Below are positions 1,194 to 26,851 of a DNA stretch of 64,000 nt, piece after piece (position 1 is the stretch's first letter; every line of letters starts with the position of its first letter). Origin of the DNA: an uncultured Actinomycetes bacterium (GTDB lineage Bacteria; Actinomycetota; Thermoleophilia; Gaiellales; JAICJC01); the NCBI GenBank assembly GCA_963809325.1, contig CAWEIZ010000002.1:452793-516792 (forward strand). The letters run 5' to 3'. The notes under the pieces are model-generated. The model made no database searches, was not told the origin of the DNA, and saw nothing but the letters and a program-made list of their open reading frames with translations. Position numbers and translations under genes: made by a program.

Positions 1194-2161
1194 GCGGCCA
1201 CCCCGCTCTCGGCCCGGCCCTCGCCCTCGCGCGCCTCGATGGTCGCCCCGGTGTGGAGCAGGAAGACGTCGTCGAGGGTCGGCCGCGCGACCATCACCGT
1301 GCGCGGCCTGATCCCGGCGGCTCCCAGCCGCTCGACGACGGCGACGACCGCGCCCGCACCGTCGCTCGCCTCGATCGAGACGCTCTCGGGCTCCGGCGCG
1401 CGCAGCCGGCCGAGCGCCTCGAGCGCCGCCCGCGCCGCGACGACCTCGGACGAGTCGACCGCCACCGTCACCACGTCAGCCCCGATCCCCGCCTTGAGCT
1501 CGTTGGGTGTGCCCTCGGCGACGACGATCCCGCGGTCGACGATGGCGAGCCGCTCGCACAGGCGGTCGGCCTCCTCGAGGTAGTGCGTCGTCAGAAACAG
1601 CGAGACGCCCGACTCGCGCAGCCGGCCGAGCTCCGACCAGAGCGCCGCCCGGGAGGCGGGGTCGACGCCGGTCGTCGGCTCGTCGAGAAAGAGCAGCTTC
1701 GGGCGGTGGACGAGCCCGCACGCCAGGTCGATCCGGCGCCGCATGCCGCCCGAGTACGTGCGCACGAGCCGGTCGGCGGCGTCCTCGAGCTCGAACAGCT
1801 CGAGCAGCTCGTCCGCGCGGGCCCGGGTCTCGGCGCGGGAGAGCCCGTACAGGCGACCCATGAGCAGCAGGTGCTCGCGGCCGGTCGAGTACTTCGCCAG
1901 GCCCGCCTCCTGGAGGGCGAAGCCGATCGTGCGGCGCACGGCCGCCGGCTCGCGGGCGACGTCGTGTCCGGCGACCGTCGCCGTCCCCGACGTCGGCGAG
2001 AGGAGCGTGCCGAGCATGCGCATCGTCGTTGTCTTGCCCGCGCCGTTGGGCCCCAGAAGCCCGAACACCTCGCCCTCCGCGATCTCGAACGAGACGCCCC
2101 GCACCGCCTCGACACCGCCGGGGAACGTCTTGCGCAGATCGCGGCATTCCAGTATCGGCAC
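1190..2161 (-). CDS. ABC transporter ATP-binding protein (DrrA-like, partner of the ABC-2 permease)
   Basis: Walker A GPNGAGKTT, signature YSGGMRRR and Walker B LLFLDEPTTGVD are present. GTG 2161 sits just before the conserved N-terminus VPILECRDLRKTF. The rest of the 636-aa ORF is a GC artefact. Confidence 0.9.
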   Translation of the reverse strand: MPILECRDLRKTFPGGVEAVRGVSFEIAEGEVFGLLGPNGAGKTTTMRMLGTLLSPTSGTATVAGHDVAREPAAVRRTIGFALQEAGLAKYSTGREHLLLMGRLYGLSRAETRARADELLELFELEDAADRLVRTYSGGMRRRIDLACGLVHRPKLLFLDEPTTGVDPASRAALWSELGRLRESGVSLFLTTHYLEEADRLCERLAIVDRGIVVAEGTPNELKAGIGADVVTVAVDSSEVVAARAALEALGRLRAPEPESVSIEASDGAGAVVAVVERLGAAGIRPRTVMVARPTLDDVFLLHTGATIEAREGEGRAESGVAA

Positions 2162-12566: not shown

Positions 12567-14326
12567 CAGGCGATGACGGCGTCGCGCTCGACGAGGGCGG
12601 CGTAGCGGCCGCCTCGAGCGACGAGCTCGGCGTGCGTCCCGCGCTCGGCGATCCGGCCGCGGTCGAGGACGAGGATCAGGTCGGCGTCGCGGATCGTGCT
12701 CAGCCGGTGGGCGATCACGATCGTCGTGCGGCCCTCGCTGAGCCGGTCGAGCGCGTCCTGCACCGCCCGCTCGGTCTCGACGTCGAGGGCGCTCGTCGCC
12801 TCGTCGAGGAGCAGCACCGGCGGGTCGCGGAGCACGGCCCGGGCGATCGCGAGCCGCTGCTTCTCGCCGCCCGAGAACCGGTAGCCGCGCTCGCCGACGA
12901 CCGTGTCGTAGCCCTCCGGAAGCGAGGCGAGATGGTCGTGGATGCGGGCTGCGCGGGCGGCCTGCTCGATCTCGTCGTCGGTCGCGTCGGGCCGCGCGAA
13001 GCGCAGGTTCTCGCGCACCGTCCCGTGAAAGAGGTAGGTCTCCTGCGAGACCACGCCGACCGTCTCGCGGAGCGAGGCGAACGAGAGGTCGCGCACGTCG
13101 ACGCCGTCGACCGTGACCGCGCCGGCGGTCGTGTCGTAGAGGCGGCCGACGAGGTAGCCGAGCGTCGTCTTGCCCGCGCCCGTCTCGCCGACGACCGCGA
13201 CCTTCGTGCCCGGATCGGCGACGAACGAGATGCCGTCGAGCGTCGGCGCCGCGTCGGGGTCGTAGCCGAAGCTGACGTCCCGGAACTCGACCTCGCCGCG
13301 CACCCTGGAGCGGTCGAGCGTGACCGGGTCGTCGCGCTCCTCGATGTCGACCGGGAGGTCGAGGTACTCGAAGACGCGGTCGAAGAGGGCCAGCGAGGTC
13401 TGGACGTCGACCTGCACGCCGAGCAGCGAGTTCACGGGGAAGAAGAGGCGCGTCTGAAGCGTGGTGAACGCGACCAGCGTGCCGATCGAGATCGCGGCGC
13501 TGCCCGACGCGAGCAGGTGGCCGGCGACGCCGTAGACGAGCGCCGGCATGACCGCGAACGTCGTCTGGATCGAGGCCATCATCCACCGGCCCGCCATGCG
13601 CGAGCGCATCTCGAGGTCGGCGAGCCGCGTGCTCTCCTGCGTGAACCGCCGCGTCAGGTCGCCGGTCTGGCCCATCGTCTTTGCGAGCAGGACGCCCGAG
13701 ACCGAGAGCGACTCCTCGACGAGCGCCGAGATGTCGGCCAGGGTGCCCTGCTTGGTGGTGGTCAGCTCCTTGCGCAGCCGGCCGATGCGGCGCGTCATGA
13801 GGACGAAGATCGGAAGGAGCCCGAACGCCGCGGCCGCGAGGCGCCAGTCCAGCAGGATCATGGCGGCGGCCGTGGCGATGACGGTGGTCACGTTGGAGAC
13901 GATCGACGTGGCGGTCGTCGTGACGACGCTCTGGACGCCGCCGATGTCGTTTGCGATCCGCGACTGCACCTCGCCGGTGCGGGTGCGGGTGAAGAAGGCG
14001 AGCGACAGCCGCTGGAGGTGCTCGTAGACGGCGGCGCGCAGGTCGTGCATCACGCGCTGGCCGACGAGGTTCGACTGCCACGTCTGCGCGACGCCGATCA
14101 CGCCGGTGATGATCGGGATCGCGACCATCCCGGCGACGAGCAGGTCGAGCCGGGTCGTGTCGACGTTCGAGCCCTGGGCCAGCACGTTGTTCAGGAGGTC
14201 GCGCAGCAGGAACGCGGGGATGACGCCGAGCCCGGCCGAGATCACGATGAGGCCGAGAAGGCCCATGAGCCGCTTCCGGTACGGCTTGAAGAGCCGGGCG
14301 ATCCGGCGTCCGGAACCCTCGCTCAC
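12566..14326 (-). CDS. ABC exporter, fused permease/ATPase (MsbA-like type I exporter)
   Basis: An N-terminal six-helix TMD is followed by an NBD with GETGAGKTT, FSGGEKQRLAIARA and LLLDEATSALD. The 586-aa ORF is intact. Confidence 0.9.
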   Translation of the reverse strand: MSEGSGRRIARLFKPYRKRLMGLLGLIVISAGLGVIPAFLLRDLLNNVLAQGSNVDTTRLDLLVAGMVAIPIITGVIGVAQTWQSNLVGQRVMHDLRAAVYEHLQRLSLAFFTRTRTGEVQSRIANDIGGVQSVVTTTATSIVSNVTTVIATAAAMILLDWRLAAAAFGLLPIFVLMTRRIGRLRKELTTTKQGTLADISALVEESLSVSGVLLAKTMGQTGDLTRRFTQESTRLADLEMRSRMAGRWMMASIQTTFAVMPALVYGVAGHLLASGSAAISIGTLVAFTTLQTRLFFPVNSLLGVQVDVQTSLALFDRVFEYLDLPVDIEERDDPVTLDRSRVRGEVEFRDVSFGYDPDAAPTLDGISFVADPGTKVAVVGETGAGKTTLGYLVGRLYDTTAGAVTVDGVDVRDLSFASLRETVGVVSQETYLFHGTVRENLRFARPDATDDEIEQAARAARIHDHLASLPEGYDTVVGERGYRFSGGEKQRLAIARAVLRDPPVLLLDEATSALDVETERAVQDALDRLSEGRTTIVIAHRLSTIRDADLILVLDRGRIAERGTHAELVARGGRYAALVERDAVIA

Positions 14327-14772
14327 CGGGCGGCCTCCAGGTTGGTCGCGCAGCGCTCGAGCAGGCCCGCGAGCTGGGTGCGCTCGTCGTCGCTGAAACC
14401 GGCGGTCATGCGCTTACCGACCTCGCGGCCGAGGTGGGGCGCCGCGGCGATCGCGACCTCGCCGGCGGGCGTCAGCTCGACACGGCGGCGGCGGCGATCG
14501 GCGGGGTGCGGCGAGCGCAGGATCCAGCCGCGCTCCTCGGCGGTGTCGACGAGCGCCGTCAGCGTGGGGGGCGCGACGCCGAAGCTGCAGCACAGCTCGC
14601 GCAGGTCGACGGCGCCGCCGGCGTGCCGGAGGCGGGCCAGGAGCTCCCACTGCTGCATGGTGAGGCCGTGCTCGCGCGCGATCCGATCGGCGGCCGCCTG
14701 GGCGAGCCGATCGACGCGGCGGACAGCCCGAAGCGCGGGCGGTCGCGGCGGCGATTGGGAGCGAGAACTCAT
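14323..14772 (-). CDS. MarR family transcriptional regulator
   Basis: 149-aa ORF with a winged-helix MarR core (LTMQQWELLARL...ADRRRRRVELTPAG). A 4-nt overlap with the ABC exporter start makes it the first gene of the operon. Confidence 0.9.
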   Translation of the reverse strand: MSSRSQSPPRPPALRAVRRVDRLAQAAADRIAREHGLTMQQWELLARLRHAGGAVDLRELCCSFGVAPPTLTALVDTAEERGWILRSPHPADRRRRRVELTPAGEVAIAAAPHLGREVGKRMTAGFSDDERTQLAGLLERCATNLEAAR

Positions 14773-14837
14773 TAGGCATCGAAATATTAGCAGGCGAAGA
14801 ATCGGGCAGAAGTTCGCAAATAGCGTGAAATTCGTGG

Positions 14838-14866
14838 TTGCACATGGGGCTCCGGTGCCGTACCTT
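14838..14866 (+). promoter_or_regulatory. sigma-70-like promoter of riboswitch module 1
   Basis: TTGCAC (14838-14843), a 17-nt spacer, then TACCTT (14861-14866, TANNNT). The same architecture and spacing occur at 25041-25069. The upstream box GAAGTTCGCAA-N3-GCGTGAAA is also conserved. Confidence 0.6.
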
Positions 14867-14868
14867 CA

Positions 14869-14985
14869 CCACTGCGCCGTCCAGGGCAGCCGAGTAGGTC
14901 GAAGCCGGACGGAGGAGCTGTAGGGGCGACTCGAAAGCTCTTTCGTGCGGGGGACGAAAGGTCAGCCGGGACGGCGAATCCTTTT
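14869..14985 (+). promoter_or_regulatory. ydaO-like (c-di-AMP class) riboswitch candidate, copy 1
   Basis: The closing helix is CGCCGUCC (14875-82) with GGACGGCG (14969-76). Collinear hallmarks are GCCGAGUA-GGUCGAAGCC-GGACGGAGGAGC, GGGGCGACUC-hairpin-GUGCGGGGGAC, GGUCAGC and GAAUCCUUUU. It is about 88 percent identical by eye to 25072..25189. Confidence 0.6.
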
Positions 14986-15026: not shown

Positions 15027-15179
15027 ATGACGGATCACCTGCTCCTCATCGCCGGCGCTCCCGTCATCGCTGTGGGCGCAATCCTCATCGTCGCGGCTCG
15101 CTTCGGTGCCAGCCGGCGCGCGGTCGTCGCCGAGCTCGAGCGGCTCGAGCAGGACGAGGCCGAGGACATCGCCGCGTAG
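15027..15179 (+). CDS. small membrane protein (50 aa) downstream of riboswitch candidate 1
   Basis: ATG 15027 follows GAAGGGCAGGG. The product is MTDHLLLIAGAPVIAVGAILIVAARFGASRRAVVAELERLEQDEAEDIAA, one TM helix plus an acidic tail. Codon third positions are strongly GC-biased. It is below the ORF-track size cutoff. Confidence 0.45.
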   Translation: MTDHLLLIAGAPVIAVGAILIVAARFGASRRAVVAELERLEQDEAEDIAA

Positions 15180-15183
15180 CGGC

Positions 15184-16311
15184 TCAGCCGCCGGAGAGCG
15201 CCTGGTCGAGGTCCGCGATCAGGTCGCCGGCGGCCTCGATCCCGACCGAGAGGCGGACGAGCGTCGCGGGCACGGCGAACGGTGAGTCCGCCGTCGAGGC
15301 GTGCGTCATCCGGCCGGGGTGCTCGATGAGGCTCTCGACGCCGCCCAGGCTCTCGGCGAGGGTCCAGATCCGGGTACGCGCGACGAGCGCCACCGCCTCC
15401 TCCTCGGACGCCGCCAGGAACGAGACCATCCCGCCGAAGCCGTCCATCTGACGGGCGGCGATGTCGTGCCCGGGGTGGCCCGGGAGCCCAGGGTAGAGCA
15501 CGCGCTCGACCGCCGAGTGGCCGAGGAGGAACTCGACCACCTGCTCGGCGTTCGCGCAGTGGGCGCGCATCCGGACGGCGAGCGTCTTCAGCCCGCGGAG
15601 CGCGAGCCAGGCGTCGAACGGCCCGGGGACGGCGCCGAGCGAGTTCTGGAGGAACCGCAGCCGCTCGGCGATGGCGGCGTCGGACGTGGCGGCGACCCCG
15701 CCGATCAGATCGGAGTGGCCGCCGAGGTACTTCGTCGTCGAGTGGACGACGATGTCGGCGCCGTGCTCCAGCGGCCGCTGCAGGAACGGGGAGGCGAACG
15801 TGTTGTCGACGACGACGATCGCGCCCGCGGCGTGGGCCGCGGCGGACGCCGCGCGCAGGTCGACGATGTTCAGCAGCGGGTTCGTCGGCGTCTCGAGCCA
15901 CAGCATCGAGGCGCCCTCCAGCTTCGCGCCGAGGCCGGCGTTGCACTCGTCCGCGGTCACGTAGGTGAAGCGGTAGCCCTTGGGCTCGTAGACCTTCGAG
16001 AAGAGCCGATACGTGCCGCCGTAGACGTCGTTCACCGCCACGACATGCGCGCCCGGCTCGAGCAGGTGCATGACGGTCGTGGTCGCCGCCATGCCCGACC
16101 CGAACGCGATCCCGTGCTCGGCTCCCTCGAGTGAGGCGAGGCACGTCTCGAACGCCTCGCGCGTGGGATTGGCCGTGCGCGAGTAGTCGTAGCGGAACTC
16201 GCCGACCGCCCGCTGGGCGTAGGTCGAGGTCGCGTAGATCGGCACCGTCACCGCGCCGGTGTGCGGATCCGGGTCCTGGCCGGCGTGGATGGCGCGGGTC
16301 TCGAACTCCAC
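15184..16311 (-). CDS. cystathionine gamma-lyase/gamma-synthase family PLP enzyme
   Basis: Cys/Met-metabolism PLP family motifs: YSRTANPTREAFE, GSGMAA, and STTKYLGGHSD with the PLP lysine. The 375-aa ORF is intact. Confidence 0.9.
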   Translation of the reverse strand: MEFETRAIHAGQDPDPHTGAVTVPIYATSTYAQRAVGEFRYDYSRTANPTREAFETCLASLEGAEHGIAFGSGMAATTTVMHLLEPGAHVVAVNDVYGGTYRLFSKVYEPKGYRFTYVTADECNAGLGAKLEGASMLWLETPTNPLLNIVDLRAASAAAHAAGAIVVVDNTFASPFLQRPLEHGADIVVHSTTKYLGGHSDLIGGVAATSDAAIAERLRFLQNSLGAVPGPFDAWLALRGLKTLAVRMRAHCANAEQVVEFLLGHSAVERVLYPGLPGHPGHDIAARQMDGFGGMVSFLAASEEEAVALVARTRIWTLAESLGGVESLIEHPGRMTHASTADSPFAVPATLVRLSVGIEAAGDLIADLDQALSGG

Positions 16312-23608: not shown

Positions 23609-24165
23609 CCGCGGCGGACGAGCTCGGGCAGGATCTCGCGCAGCGCGTCGACCGTCGGCGTGCGGTCGCGGATCCCGGTGTGGTGCGAGGGCCAGCCGTC
23701 GTGGAAGTCGACGATCGCGCCGTCGTGGACGCCGTCGAGCACGCGCCGCACGATCCGGTCGACCTTCCGCTCGCGCCAGTCGATCGGGTCGACGTCCCAC
23801 AGGATGCACGCGAGGCCCAGGCCGGCGCCGACCACGCCCACCCGCTCGGCGTCCTCGCCGTACGGCGGCCGGACGAGCCGCGGGGCGATCCCGGAGGCGT
23901 CGGTGATGACCTGCTGCGCGCGGGCCAGCTCCTCGCGCAGCGCGCTCTCCTCGAGGCGGCCGCAGTGCGGGTGCGAGTACGTGTGGTTTCCGAGCTCGTG
24001 GCCGGCGGCGACCATGCGCCGCAGGAGCGGCTCCTGGCCGGGGATCTTGTCCCCGAGGACGAAGAACGTCCCGGCCCCTCCGTGCTCGGCGATCAGATCG
24101 GCGATCGCCTCGGTGTGCGGGGACGGGCCGTCGTCGAAGGTGAGCGCTAGTCGGGCTCGGGCCAC
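23542..24165 (-). CDS. polysaccharide deacetylase (NodB homology domain)
   Basis: LALTFDDGP, GTFFVLG, GHELGNHTYSH and VRPPYG. GTG 24165 is preferred and ATG 24201 is the alternative. The 3' end overlaps the convergent deacetylase by 67 nt. Confidence 0.8.
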   Translation of the reverse strand: MARARLALTFDDGPSPHTEAIADLIAEHGGAGTFFVLGDKIPGQEPLLRRMVAAGHELGNHTYSHPHCGRLEESALREELARAQQVITDASGIAPRLVRPPYGEDAERVGVVGAGLGLACILWDVDPIDWRERKVDRIVRRVLDGVHDGAIVDFHDGWPSHHTGIRDRTPTVDALREILPELVRRGYEAVTVSAMSAQPATQTPSSS

Positions 24166-24980
24166 CGGTAGCTGAAGTAGAACTGCCGCCACGCCGTCCA
24201 CCAGTCGTCGGCGCGCGAGGCGATGGTGCGGCCGTCGATGATCTCGACCAGCGGGTGGTGGCGGAACTGCTCGGAGTGGTCAGGTGTCGCGAGCTCGACC
24301 CGGACCTCGCACGGCTTGCCCGGGTCGTACGGCGGCACGGCCTTCAGGTCGGCGAGCGCGGCCCGGGCTCCCTCCTCGATCATCCGGCGCGCCTCGGCCG
24401 GCGTCTTGTGCCGGCCGCTGAACCGCCCGAGGGCGGTCTTCACCTGGACGGTGGTGAGCCCGTCGCCGAGCAGCTCGCGCCCCTCGCGGCACGCCGCCTG
24501 GTCGCCGGTTACGAGCAGCACCGGGCACCCCCAGGTGCCGCACAGCGCCGCGTTGATGCCGGTCTCGCCGACCTCGGTGCCGTTGAACCGCACGCTGCGC
24601 CACTCGGTCCCCGAGACGGTGTGCGTCATGAACCCGTCGCTCGTCCCGGCCATGGCGTGCATCCCGATGAAGAGCGCGCCGTCGCACCCATCCTCGAGGA
24701 CGCCGGTGTACTCGGTCCACTCCTTCTGGACCACGAACTCGCACCCCTCGTCGAGGTCCTCGGGGATGAGCGAGTTGAACGACCAGCCCTTCCCGGCCCC
24801 ATGGCAGTCCATGACGACGACCTCGGTCGCGCCGCCCGCCCGCGCACCGCGGACGGCTGCGTTGATCTCCTGGGTGTAGAGCTTGCGCCCCTCCTCGTAG
24901 AGGGACTCACCGCCGGCGACCTGCTGCCAGTTCGAGATGCCGGCGACGCCCTCCATGTCGCTCACGATGAAGACGCGCAT
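24147..24980 (-). CDS. M55 family D-aminopeptidase (DppA-like)
   Basis: The MRVFIVSDMEGVAGI N-terminus is typical of M55. The 277-aa ORF is intact. Confidence 0.85.
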   Translation of the reverse strand: MRVFIVSDMEGVAGISNWQQVAGGESLYEEGRKLYTQEINAAVRGARAGGATEVVVMDCHGAGKGWSFNSLIPEDLDEGCEFVVQKEWTEYTGVLEDGCDGALFIGMHAMAGTSDGFMTHTVSGTEWRSVRFNGTEVGETGINAALCGTWGCPVLLVTGDQAACREGRELLGDGLTTVQVKTALGRFSGRHKTPAEARRMIEEGARAALADLKAVPPYDPGKPCEVRVELATPDHSEQFRHHPLVEIIDGRTIASRADDWWTAWRQFYFSYRWPEPD

Positions 24981-25040
24981 GCGGCGGCCACTCTACCGGC
25001 CGCCCGGCCCGGAAGGTCGCAACGTGCGTGAAAAACCCGG

Positions 25041-25069
25041 TTGCAGACCGTGGACGCGTCCCGTAGCTT
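25041..25069 (+). promoter_or_regulatory. sigma-70-like promoter of riboswitch module 2
   Basis: TTGCAG (25041-46), a 17-nt spacer, then TAGCTT (25064-69). The upstream box GAAGGTCGCAA-N3-GCGTGAAA has the same spacing as copy 1. Confidence 0.6.
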
Positions 25070-25071
25070 GA

Positions 25072-25189
25072 CCACTGCGCCGTCCAGGGCAGCCGAGTAG
25101 GTCGAAGCCGGGCGGAGGAGCGGGTAGAGGTGACTCGAACGCTCTTTCGCCCGGGGGACGAAAGGCCAGCCGGGACGGCGAATCCTTTT
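25072..25189 (+). promoter_or_regulatory. ydaO-like (c-di-AMP class) riboswitch candidate, copy 2
   Basis: Same closing helix and hallmark blocks as 14869..14985. The substitutions cluster in linker and hairpin positions. One is compensatory: A14909:U14962 becomes G25112:C25166. Confidence 0.6.
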
Positions 25190-25211
25190 CTCGAGCGGTA
25201 GGCTTGCGGCG

Positions 25212-25316
25212 ATGGGGCCGAGCGGCATCACACCGTGGGGCGAGTCGCCGAAGGGTCTTCGCGGCTGGCTCCGCTTCCTGCTGCGGCTGATCGCGCCGCG
25301 CCCGCCGCGGCACTGA
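25212..25316 (+). CDS. possible 34-codon sORF downstream of riboswitch candidate 2
   Basis: ATG 25212 to TGA 25316 gives MGPSGITPWGESPKGLRGWLRFLLRLIAPRPPRH. The RBS is weak and there is no similarity to the copy-1 sORF. It could be non-coding. Confidence 0.2.
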   Translation: MGPSGITPWGESPKGLRGWLRFLLRLIAPRPPRH

Positions 25317-25319
25317 TCG

Positions 25320-25741
25320 TCAGCTCAGCTGGACCGAGCCGTCGTCGCGGAGCGTCCAGTGCGGGTTGTGGGCGACCTCCCACGGATGCCCGTCGGGGTC
25401 GGCGAACACACCGGAGTAGCCGCCCCAGAAGGTCTCGGCCCCGCCCCGCAGCACGGTGCCGCCGGCGGCCCGGGCCTCCTCCAGGACGGCGTCGACCTCC
25501 GCGGGCGAGCGGGTGTTGTACGCCAGCGTCACGCCGCCCCAGCCGCCGCCGTCGGCAACGACCGAGTCCTCAGCGAGCTGCGCGCGGCCCCACAGCGCGA
25601 GGATCGTCCCTCCCGCCTGGAAGAACACGACGTCGTCGGCGGGCGCCGCGCCCGTCGTCCACCCGAGCCCCTCGTAGAACGCCCGCGCCCGCGCCCAGAT
25701 CCGAGACGCCCAGGCGTGACGAGGCTGACCCGCTGCTCCAC
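25320..25741 (-). pseudogene. VOC (glyoxalase/bleomycin-resistance) family protein, two frameshifts near the 5' end
   Basis: The body reads ARARAFYEGLGW...FADPDGHPWEVAHNP in one frame. The expected N-terminal strand is split over three frames (MEQRVSLVT / LGVSDL / ARARAFY), with an extra C near 25713-14 and an extra G near 25694-96. Confidence 0.65.
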
Positions 25742-25750
25742 GCTGCCATC

Positions 25751-26851
25751 CTAGCCAGTGCCGAGGATCTCGGACGCGAGCCACTGCCCCTGCTCGTTCA
25801 GGCGGCCGTGCGACACGAGCCCGAACTTGGAGACGCAGTCCAGGTTCCAGCGCGCCCAGCTGATGCCGTGCCGGCGCATGATGCCCTCCACCTGCTCGTT
25901 GTAGACGTGGTTTCGCACGTCGTCGTTTCGCGCGCCCCACTCGCCGACGATCATCGGGATCCCATGCAAGTGCGTGCTCCGCCACGGGATGGCGAGGTTC
26001 AGCCACTGGTTGCGAGCGGTGCCGTGGTAGCGGGTGCTGAGCTGGTTGTGCGTCTCCGACCAGTTCGGAACCCAGTTGTCGTCGGCAGCGTCGAGGCCCG
26101 ATCCGCAACAGCCGTTGTAGAAGTCGTGCCAGTCGAGCGCCGTATGGGCGAGCCGGAATCCGGCGCACCCGAAGCACGCCCGGGCGCCGAGGGCCCCGCC
26201 GCGGACGTTGAAGAAGACGGTCGTATAGGGGTCGATGGCGAGGATCGCATCGCGGATGCCCGCCTGCCATTCCAGCATGTCGCGGTCGACCCGCGGCGAT
26301 CCGACGTGATCCCAGACGAACGGTCGCGGCTCGTTGAAGATGCCGAAGCCGATGACGCGCGGGTTGCCGGCGTACCGGTGCACGAGCGCGCGCACGAAGA
26401 CGAGATACGCGCCGCGGGGCGCCGGCGCGCGGCGCACGTGGAAGCCGTGCCGGTTGACCCACCCCGGAAGCTCCTCGCCGCGCAGGTCGAGCACGACGTT
26501 CACGCGATGTGCGGTCAGGTATGCGATGAAGGCGTCGAGGCGCTCCAGCTCACGCGCATCGAGGTGTCCGCGGCGGGGCTCGATGTCGGCCCAGAGGACG
26601 CGGACCCGGGCGAAGTTCGCATGCAGCTCGATCACCTTCTCCACGAGCCGCGATTGGTAGCTGACGTCGACCCCGCGGAGGATCACGATCCTGCCGGCCC
26701 GGTCGACGAAGTGGATGCCGCTCGTGGTCACCGCCGGCCGCACCGGCCGCGCGGCCCTCGCGGGTGGCGAAAGGAGGAGAGGGACGAACGCCGCGAGCGC
26801 GAGGCTCGCGAAGGACCGGCTCAAACGACAGGTCCGCGACCCGGTCTGCAC
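25751..26851 (-). CDS. glycoside hydrolase family 5 (secreted)
   Basis: N-terminal signal peptide, an IFNEP acid/base motif and a GEWG nucleophile motif. The 366-aa ORF is intact. Confidence 0.85.
   Translation of the reverse strand: MQTGSRTCRLSRSFASLALAAFVPLLLSPPARAARPVRPAVTTSGIHFVDRAGRIVILRGVDVSYQSRLVEKVIELHANFARVRVLWADIEPRRGHLDARELERLDAFIAYLTAHRVNVVLDLRGEELPGWVNRHGFHVRRAPAPRGAYLVFVRALVHRYAGNPRVIGFGIFNEPRPFVWDHVGSPRVDRDMLEWQAGIRDAILAIDPYTTVFFNVRGGALGARACFGCAGFRLAHTALDWHDFYNGCCGSGLDAADDNWVPNWSETHNQLSTRYHGTARNQWLNLAIPWRSTHLHGIPMIVGEWGARNDDVRNHVYNEQVEGIMRRHGISWARWNLDCVSKFGLVSHGRLNEQGQWLASEILGTG

Follow-up and report, generated by a model that had tools for sequence, protein, structure and literature searches.

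What is the element that occurs twice in a 64,000-nucleotide (nt) stretch of DNA from an uncultured Actinomycetes bacterium of the Gaiellales (contig CAWEIZ010000002.1; the whole stretch is called the window here), once at 14809-14985 (copy A) and once at 25012-25189 (copy B)? A preliminary description of the window had read it as a promoter joined to a cyclic di-AMP (c-di-AMP) riboswitch, a label that would mislead annotation and is corrected here. The module is a promoter followed by a rod-shaped RNA of ~105-113 nt that belongs to a previously undescribed family in uncultured soil Gaiellales. What this RNA does is answered with less certainty. It may be an independently transcribed, co-regulated and structured small RNA whose leaky termination also feeds the genes downstream, a reading that we hold to be about evenly balanced between right and wrong.

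The module and its relatives

The two copies are 84.3% identical across 178 bp (25012-25189 against 14809-14985, E 6.7e-46, blastn), and from 25061/14858 on the identity is 91.5% across 129 bp. In a MAFFT alignment, the near-identity spans the sequence from an upstream box to AATCCTTTT, which ends at 14985 in copy A and at 25189 in copy B, and unrelated sequence lies beyond. This bears out the proposal in the preliminary description that promoter and structured RNA recur together in copy B as a second paralogue of the module, including the endpoints of the match and its abrupt stop after AATCCTTTT. A third copy was found in the 64-kb window neither by blastn nor with the covariance model (CM) described below.

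Relatives were sought in one genome per GTDB species, 185,579 species genomes in all, with a pattern that held the loop strings GAGTAGGNCGAAG-N30-60-GGGGNCGAAAG and left the stems free. The scan returned 120 matches in 101 loci, which are referred to by numbers with the prefix L. All 101 are located in metagenome-assembled genomes (MAGs), and all that are named below the phylum/class level belong to Thermoleophilia, Gaiellales or Gaiellaceae. The CM, termed R1, was built on 117 distinct sequences and gave 132 strong matches in 99 of the loci, some of which fall outside the scan pattern; two further loci were searched separately. With nhmmer, 135 copies were obtained including those of the window, 133 of them in the 101 loci. 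They are distributed over 75 assemblies with one to four copies each, which is a lower bound as 8-kb blocks only were covered, and they include 24 tandem pairs with a spacing of 195-289 nt and separate promoters for both members. In the window, the structured RNA is matched by R1 on the plus strand at 14873..14985 in copy A (127.0 bits) and at 25076..25189 in copy B (127.1 bits, E 3e-33), with both ends of the latter predicted. Both copies have syntenic orthologues in several MAGs, and these include the same pair at a distance of ~10 kb.

None of the known RNA families accounts for the element. No family of Rfam 15 was matched anywhere in the window at gathering thresholds, and 401-nt windows around each copy returned only chance-level microRNA and small nucleolar RNA noise at E<=10. 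Eight divergent family members gave nothing relevant at E<=5. Similar DNA was not found in viral contigs or in plasmid and phage collections, and a full-text search of the literature on non-coding RNAs and riboswitches of Gaiellales and Thermoleophilia returned nothing relevant.

Fold of the RNA, promoter and upstream box

Both copies fold into one long hairpin on the plus strand (copy A -58.3 kcal/mol, z -3.5; copy B -67.0 kcal/mol, z -4.1), and the fold of the minus strand is unremarkable (z -0.8 and -1.9, respectively). The RNAalifold consensus is an unbranched rod in which 21 of 31 pairs change on both sides. The refined structure comprises 33 pairs and was set against two controls, shuffled columns and a 3′ partner slid by 1-3 columns. 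Paired cells make up 94.2% in the family alignment compared to 75.5% after column shuffling and 32-42% with the slid partner; the covariation score is 0.477 compared to 0.17 and 0.05-0.12, respectively, and both sides change in 23 of the 33 pairs. G-U pairs fill hundreds of cells, and at many paired positions a large share of the sequences has G-U. Since these would be A-C mismatches on the minus strand, the RNA strand is the plus strand, in agreement with the fold z-scores and with what the preliminary description had assumed.

The rod is best followed along copy B, where all parts lie on the plus strand. It begins with the basal stem P1 (25078-85 / 25173-80), which is followed by the two 3-bp helices P2 (25088-90 / 25169-71) and P3 (25092-94 / 25164-66) and by the invariant core internal loop with GAGUAGGUCGAAG opposite GGGACGAAA (25095-25107 / 25155-63). 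Above the core stands P5, a G-U-rich helix of about 13-14 bp (25108-21 / 25141-54), and a small internal loop nGUA / GAAn (25123-26 / 25137-40) separates it from the 3-bp helix P6 (25127-29 / 25134-36). The apex is formed by a GNRA tetraloop (25130-33), which is represented by GCGA/GUGA in the two window copies, and the tail AAUCCUUUU (25181-89) follows P1. In copy A, the corresponding positions are 14875-82 / 14969-76 for P1, 14892-14904 / 14951-59 for the core, 14926-29 for the tetraloop and 14977-85 for the tail.

The most conserved part of the RNA is the asymmetric 13/9-nt internal loop in the middle of the rod (GAGUAGGNCGAAG opposite GGGACGAAA), which is almost invariant in the 135 copies. 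Its strings GUAG(G/A)NCGAA and GGACG(A/G)AA are also retained in copies that were found by the CM alone, so the invariance of the core comes only partly from the seed pattern of the scan. The apex is dispensable, as it accepts 15-nt insertions (L026, L036 and L065), and the functional centre is therefore placed towards the middle and the base of the rod. At the sequence level only, the core with AGUA opposite GAA and the apex with nGUA-3 bp-GNRA-3 bp-GAA resemble the sarcin-ricin/loop-E (bulged-G) motif, from which the RNA differs by the replacement of the would-be bulged G in one copy. A T-loop-like reading of the core, suggested by the two facing NCGAA strings, would be an alternative at the same level. 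A further basal helix, P0, between GACCA in the 5′ flank and UGGUC in the tail, was rejected; it lies upstream of the predicted start and has no counterpart in the copies classed as type 2.

Within the RNA, copies A and B differ at nine positions, and all nine differences are neutral to the supported fold. A true compensatory change replaces A14909:U14946 by G25112:C25150. The G·G opposition of copy A at 14947 / 25151 is a G-C pair in copy B, and G·U pairs of copy A become A-U at 14924 / 25128 and G-C at 14962 / 25166, where U14962 and C25166 are partnered by G14889 and G25092. The other differences fall in the apical loop, at the N position of the tetraloop or in a one-base insertion. The preliminary description had thus been right in outline on the pattern of substitutions, and wrong in the pairings that it named. 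It had paired A14909 with U14962 and seen a compensatory change to G25112:C25166, and it had placed this pair in a helix of CCGGAC with GU(CAG)CCGG and proposed a second stem of GGCGA with UCGUG. Across 117 family members, these helices are paired at 62.6% and show no excess covariation, so that the comparison with further copies, by which the description had proposed to judge them, speaks against them.

The promoter is of the sigma-70 type. That of copy B consists of the -35 element TTGCAG (25041..25046, +) and the -10 element TAGCTT (25064..25069, +), and that of copy A (14838..14866, +) of TTGCAC at 14838-43 and TACCTT at 14861-66. The spacer is 17 nt in both; that the spacing is identical had been noted before. 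A scan for the E. coli-type consensus did not call these -35/-10 elements in the window, and the promoter is accepted because of its conservation at fixed spacing in the whole family: a TTGNNN-N16-19-TANNNT pattern that ends 7-8 nt ahead of P1 is present in 131 of the 134 copies with enough flank for this count, with a spacer of 17 nt in 120. From its position, transcription would start 1-3 nt before P1, at about 25075-25077 in copy B.

Upstream of the promoter, both window copies share a box of the form GAAGkTCGCAA-N3-GCGTGAAA. It extends from GAAGTTCGCAA to GCGTGAAA at 14809..14830 in copy A (GAAGTTCGCAAATAGCGTGAAA, +) and from GAAGGTCGCAA to GCGTGAAA at 25012..25033 in copy B (GAAGGTCGCAACGTGCGTGAAA, +). 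The box of copy B is pseudo-palindromic (CGCA-N3-TGCG), and its GCAA core begins 22 nt ahead of the start of the -35 element. That the box is a shared feature holds beyond the window, as the motif (GAAnTTC)GCAAAnnGCG lies upstream of 105 of the 134 copies compared to about two expected from shuffles. Its distance to the -35 element is fixed at 22 or 31-32 nt, and it is reverse-complemented in some type-2 copies. The box is a putative operator and likely the site of a regulatory transcription factor. The distance to the divergent genes requires a correction: their start codons are 31-36 nt from the box and not ~50 nt as first stated.

Possible functions of the RNA

The arrangement of the copies relative to genes bears on whether the RNA or the downstream gene is what is selected. 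Of 130 copies, 74 have the next downstream gene on their own strand and 56 have it on the other one. In at least 14 copies, a convergent gene ends within 60 nt and leaves no room for a gene in between, and 24 copies are the upstream members of tandems, which are followed by a second complete unit of box, promoter and RNA. Same-strand genes downstream are unrelated to each other and include genes for DUF1989 proteins (15 loci), OmpR-type regulators (10) and SmpB (7), as well as for NUDIX hydrolases, a GT2 glycosyltransferase, BrkB and small membrane proteins. In about 20 loci, an M55 peptidase gene lies divergent to the module at a distance of 88-102 nt, and the downstream content of these M55-adjoining copies differs between genomes, which indicates that the module is kept independently of what follows. 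The earlier claim that promoter and RNA are maintained as a unit whatever lies downstream is thereby upheld.

Taken together, the covarying helices, the invariant loop, the private promoters and the copies without a downstream gene argue that selection acts on the RNA itself, and the importance of both shape and loop identity points to an RNA that binds a protein or ligand rather than to one with an antisense seed. Features expected of a stand-alone small RNA are found in the promoter at fixed distance, the activity of which is predicted, and in a location that is independent of the neighbours. On this basis, a mechanism can be proposed. Transcription would start just ahead of P1, which would sequester the 5′ end in the basal stem. 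Many transcripts would terminate at the short U-rich tail or a little beyond it and release a stable small RNA, and a fraction would read through and carry expression onward to a 34-codon open reading frame (ORF) behind copy B and a 50-codon ORF behind copy A. Such read-through is plausible, since several same-strand genes start 6-60 nt past the tail with no promoter of their own seen there. All copies might be co-regulated by one DNA-binding protein that recognizes the shared box. In the most speculative step, the invariant loop and the P2-P3 region would bind a protein or a small ligand instead of serving as antisense seed, and the RNA could work as ribonucleoprotein, decoy or sensor.

Several observations weigh against an independent small RNA. 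As many as 46 of the 135 copies lie directly before a same-strand gene, within 130 nt, which would fit a leader or attenuator equally well. The U-run of the tail is mostly only 3-4 U after an AA spacer, stronger U-tracts were looked for in the stand-alone copies and not seen, and no terminator was called in the scan. That a discrete small RNA exists, where its transcription starts and where its 3′ end lies are all deduced from sequence features, and the gene neighbourhood points to no partner protein or ligand. The seed pattern of the scan fixed most of the core, which makes its invariance in part a product of construction and the taxonomic range a lower bound. The genes in the loci were called by a simple caller based on GC content at third codon positions (GC3) and are approximate.

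The 46 copies close to a same-strand gene lead to a tentative alternative, a serious though less likely rival, in which the module is a new class of cis-acting leader that works as a riboswitch or as an attenuator under the control of a protein. In this reading, the rod would be the sensor, P1 and the U-rich tail would be the terminator, a ligand or protein would set the read-through, and the copies that stand alone or in tandem would be by-products or act in trans. Covarying helices around an invariant loop are typical of RNAs that bind ligands or proteins, P1 directly precedes a U-rich stretch in most copies, and both window copies precede conserved small ORFs. Several of the 46 same-strand genes start as close as 6-36 nt past the tail, and the sequences ahead of these starts, when read by eye, show neither a Shine-Dalgarno sequence nor a promoter. 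A leader is harder to reconcile with the copies that have no room for a gene (14) or are followed by another complete promoter-plus-RNA unit (24), and with downstream genes that have no pathway in common. The OmpR-regulator genes, moreover, seem to have a TACAAT promoter of their own past the RNA. No covarying alternative pairing that could serve as expression platform was found; a helix between the tail/CCGACC and the P5 3′ strand was considered for this role and dismissed, as it shows no covariation. Of the marks of a riboswitch of whatever class, the covarying aptamer with an invariant pocket is present, and a consistent position as leader of themed same-strand genes is absent.

If the copies act in trans, they might instead be sibling base-pairing small RNAs that are co-regulated through the shared box and antisense to mRNAs. 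Their multicopy and tandem occurrence, a promoter for each copy, the common upstream box and an intergenic location independent of the neighbouring genes recall Qrr, PrrF1/2 and RsmX/Y/Z, which likewise have several paralogues per genome, often in tandem. We regard this as rather unlikely, since the rod is tightly paired and its conserved nucleotides reside in short internal loops and not in an accessible single-stranded seed, since the covarying helices point to selection on shape and not on a pairing sequence, and since no target complementarity was identified. The difference from the known sibling RNAs lies in the same features, as a covarying rod with an invariant loop is selected here rather than single-stranded seeds or GGA loops. 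The rod with its asymmetric 13/9-nt central loop, which has about 14 and 17 bp on its two sides, also resembles 6S RNA, a rod of ~150-200 nt with a central bubble, and a short 6S-like RNA could mimic open promoter DNA and bind the RNA polymerase holoenzyme. Some type-2 tandem copies are divergent from a principal-sigma-factor-like gene, the identity of which was read from the sequence and not from Pfam. This explanation is nevertheless improbable; Rfam 6S (RF00013) is not matched, the rod of ~102 nt is about half as long as 6S RNA (~180 nt), the bubble sequence is invariant unlike that of 6S RNA, and one to four or more copies occur with an apparently regulated promoter.

The least probable explanations are the one proposed initially and one at the level of DNA. 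The c-di-AMP (ydaO-yuaA) riboswitch shares with the module a structured RNA right behind a promoter in an actinobacterial intergenic region and short, purine-rich conserved strings, and local resemblances are limited to GGGGACGAAAGG and GAAUCC. Its Rfam family RF00379 is not matched at the gathering threshold, at E<=10 around both copies or at E<=5 in eight family members. The ydaO fold is multi-helix, pseudo-symmetric and multi-junction, whereas the covariation-supported rod has zero branch points. The downstream genes are not those of the usual ydaO regulon, and many copies have no downstream gene. It is hardly credible that the module functions as a c-di-AMP riboswitch, and as a family assignment this is essentially excluded. 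A DNA-level repeat, such as a mobile or repetitive extragenic palindromic (REP)-like element or a bidirectional terminator hairpin, could explain the dispersed and sometimes tandem occurrence. This is very improbable as well, because the pairing is strand-specific, nearly all copies have a promoter at a fixed distance, the positions are syntenic across genomes and the searches of viral contigs, plasmids and phages gave no match. Signal recognition particle RNA, Y RNA, T-box stem I and a CsrA sponge were considered and set aside for want of Rfam support or of the expected context. Among known RNAs, the raiA motif, an orphan structured non-coding RNA, offers a further comparison, as it combines strong covariation with an occurrence that is sometimes before genes and sometimes alone. 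The Gaiellales RNA is much smaller, is unrelated to it in sequence and fold and is so far confined to Gaiellales MAGs.

Beyond the reading as an independently transcribed small RNA, a broader proposal is conceivable, although we would not expect it to hold. The family might constitute a new class of sensor RNA, in which the ligand of the invariant loop would be a metabolite, tRNA or dedicated protein, and both the regulated termination at its own basal stem and the small RNA that is set free might serve to coordinate a Gaiellales-specific regulon. If true, trans-translation (rnr-RNA-smpB-ssrA) would belong to this regulon together with a two-component system, NUDIX and DUF1989 enzymes and several small membrane proteins. 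Gaiellales are abundant in soil, and almost none of these actinobacteria have been cultured. A family with 23 covarying pairs, an invariant loop of ~22 nt, a promoter and a shared operator-like box offers a handle on a lineage-specific regulon in this group and on an RNA-protein or RNA-ligand interaction.

Small ORFs, neighbouring genes and further observations

The ORFs behind the two window copies bring two conserved small proteins of 34 and 50 amino acids (aa) to light. The 34-codon ORF (MGPSGITPWGESPKGLRGWLRFLLRLIAPRPPRH, 25212..25316, +) had been called doubtful. It is conserved in nine related loci, where 133, 92 and 356 differences fall on the first, second and third codon positions, with 294 synonymous and 171 non-synonymous changes, and the bias toward the third position contradicts that doubt. 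The 50-codon ORF behind copy A (15027..15179, +) is conserved in 11 loci with 508, 326 and 771 differences by codon position and 517 synonymous and 716 non-synonymous changes, a pattern of the coding type. Neither product has a match in Pfam; from its sequence, we take the 50-aa product to be a single-pass membrane protein with an acidic C-terminus. Both ORFs are probably real small-protein genes, and their expression would be explained most simply by read-through from the module.

Copy B lies between the divergent M55 D-aminopeptidase gene (24147..24980, -; PF04951, E 8e-78) and a convergent gene of the VOC/glyoxalase family (25320..25754, -; PF00903, E 6e-9). Copy A is flanked by a divergent gene for a MarR-family regulator (14323..14772, -; PF01047, E 1e-12) and a convergent one for a Cys/Met pyridoxal phosphate (PLP) enzyme (15184-16311). 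The MarR-divergent arrangement is syntenic in L005, L035, L039, L057 and L079.

In eight loci, the RNA is positioned between an RNase R-like gene and smpB, and the gene for transfer-messenger RNA then follows in four of the eight (ARAGORN). The copies at L024, L046, L054 and L099 (also L027, L028, L032 and L072) are of type 2, and the upstream gene product of ~560 aa is presumably RNase R-like, as judged by eye from its sequence. Other type-2 copies form tandems (L015, L066, L101 and similar loci) that are divergent from a gene resembling that of the principal sigma factor, which may be chance synteny within one clade.

In close relatives of the window genome, a third copy is flanked by a NUDIX gene and by a gene for an OmpR-type response regulator (L010, L043, L049, L060, L067-L070, L087 and L100); this copy has no counterpart within this window. 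The regulator gene there seems to start leaderless, from a TACAAT promoter that belongs to it alone.

A short conserved motif, UGG(U/A)CC, is located behind the U-rich tail, 5-12 nt past P1, in 79 of the 135 copies (for example L058, 4607-4625), in several subfamilies and contexts, and is often the 5′ half of a GC hairpin that follows. It is absent from both window copies, and neither a pairing partner nor a coding role was found for it. A role of UGGUCC as Shine-Dalgarno sequence or anti-16S element was discarded, as its distance to start codons is not consistent and stand-alone copies carry it as well.

A divergent subfamily designated type 3 (L074, L080 and L091) scores 57-82 bits and has a different apex and a different-looking promoter. 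Its neighbourhood was examined and is uninformative, and type 2 coexists with it in one MAG. A canonical GC hairpin follows the rod of the type-3 copies, and a second GC hairpin is seen in some copies of the family. Between the RNA and the 34-aa ORF, a strong hairpin, GCAACAUUGGGGUCUGACCCCAAUGUUGC, is present in L002, L033 (~1400-1460, minus strand), L044, L041, L083 and L013; copy B of the window is without it, and in L013 the stem has a variant sequence.

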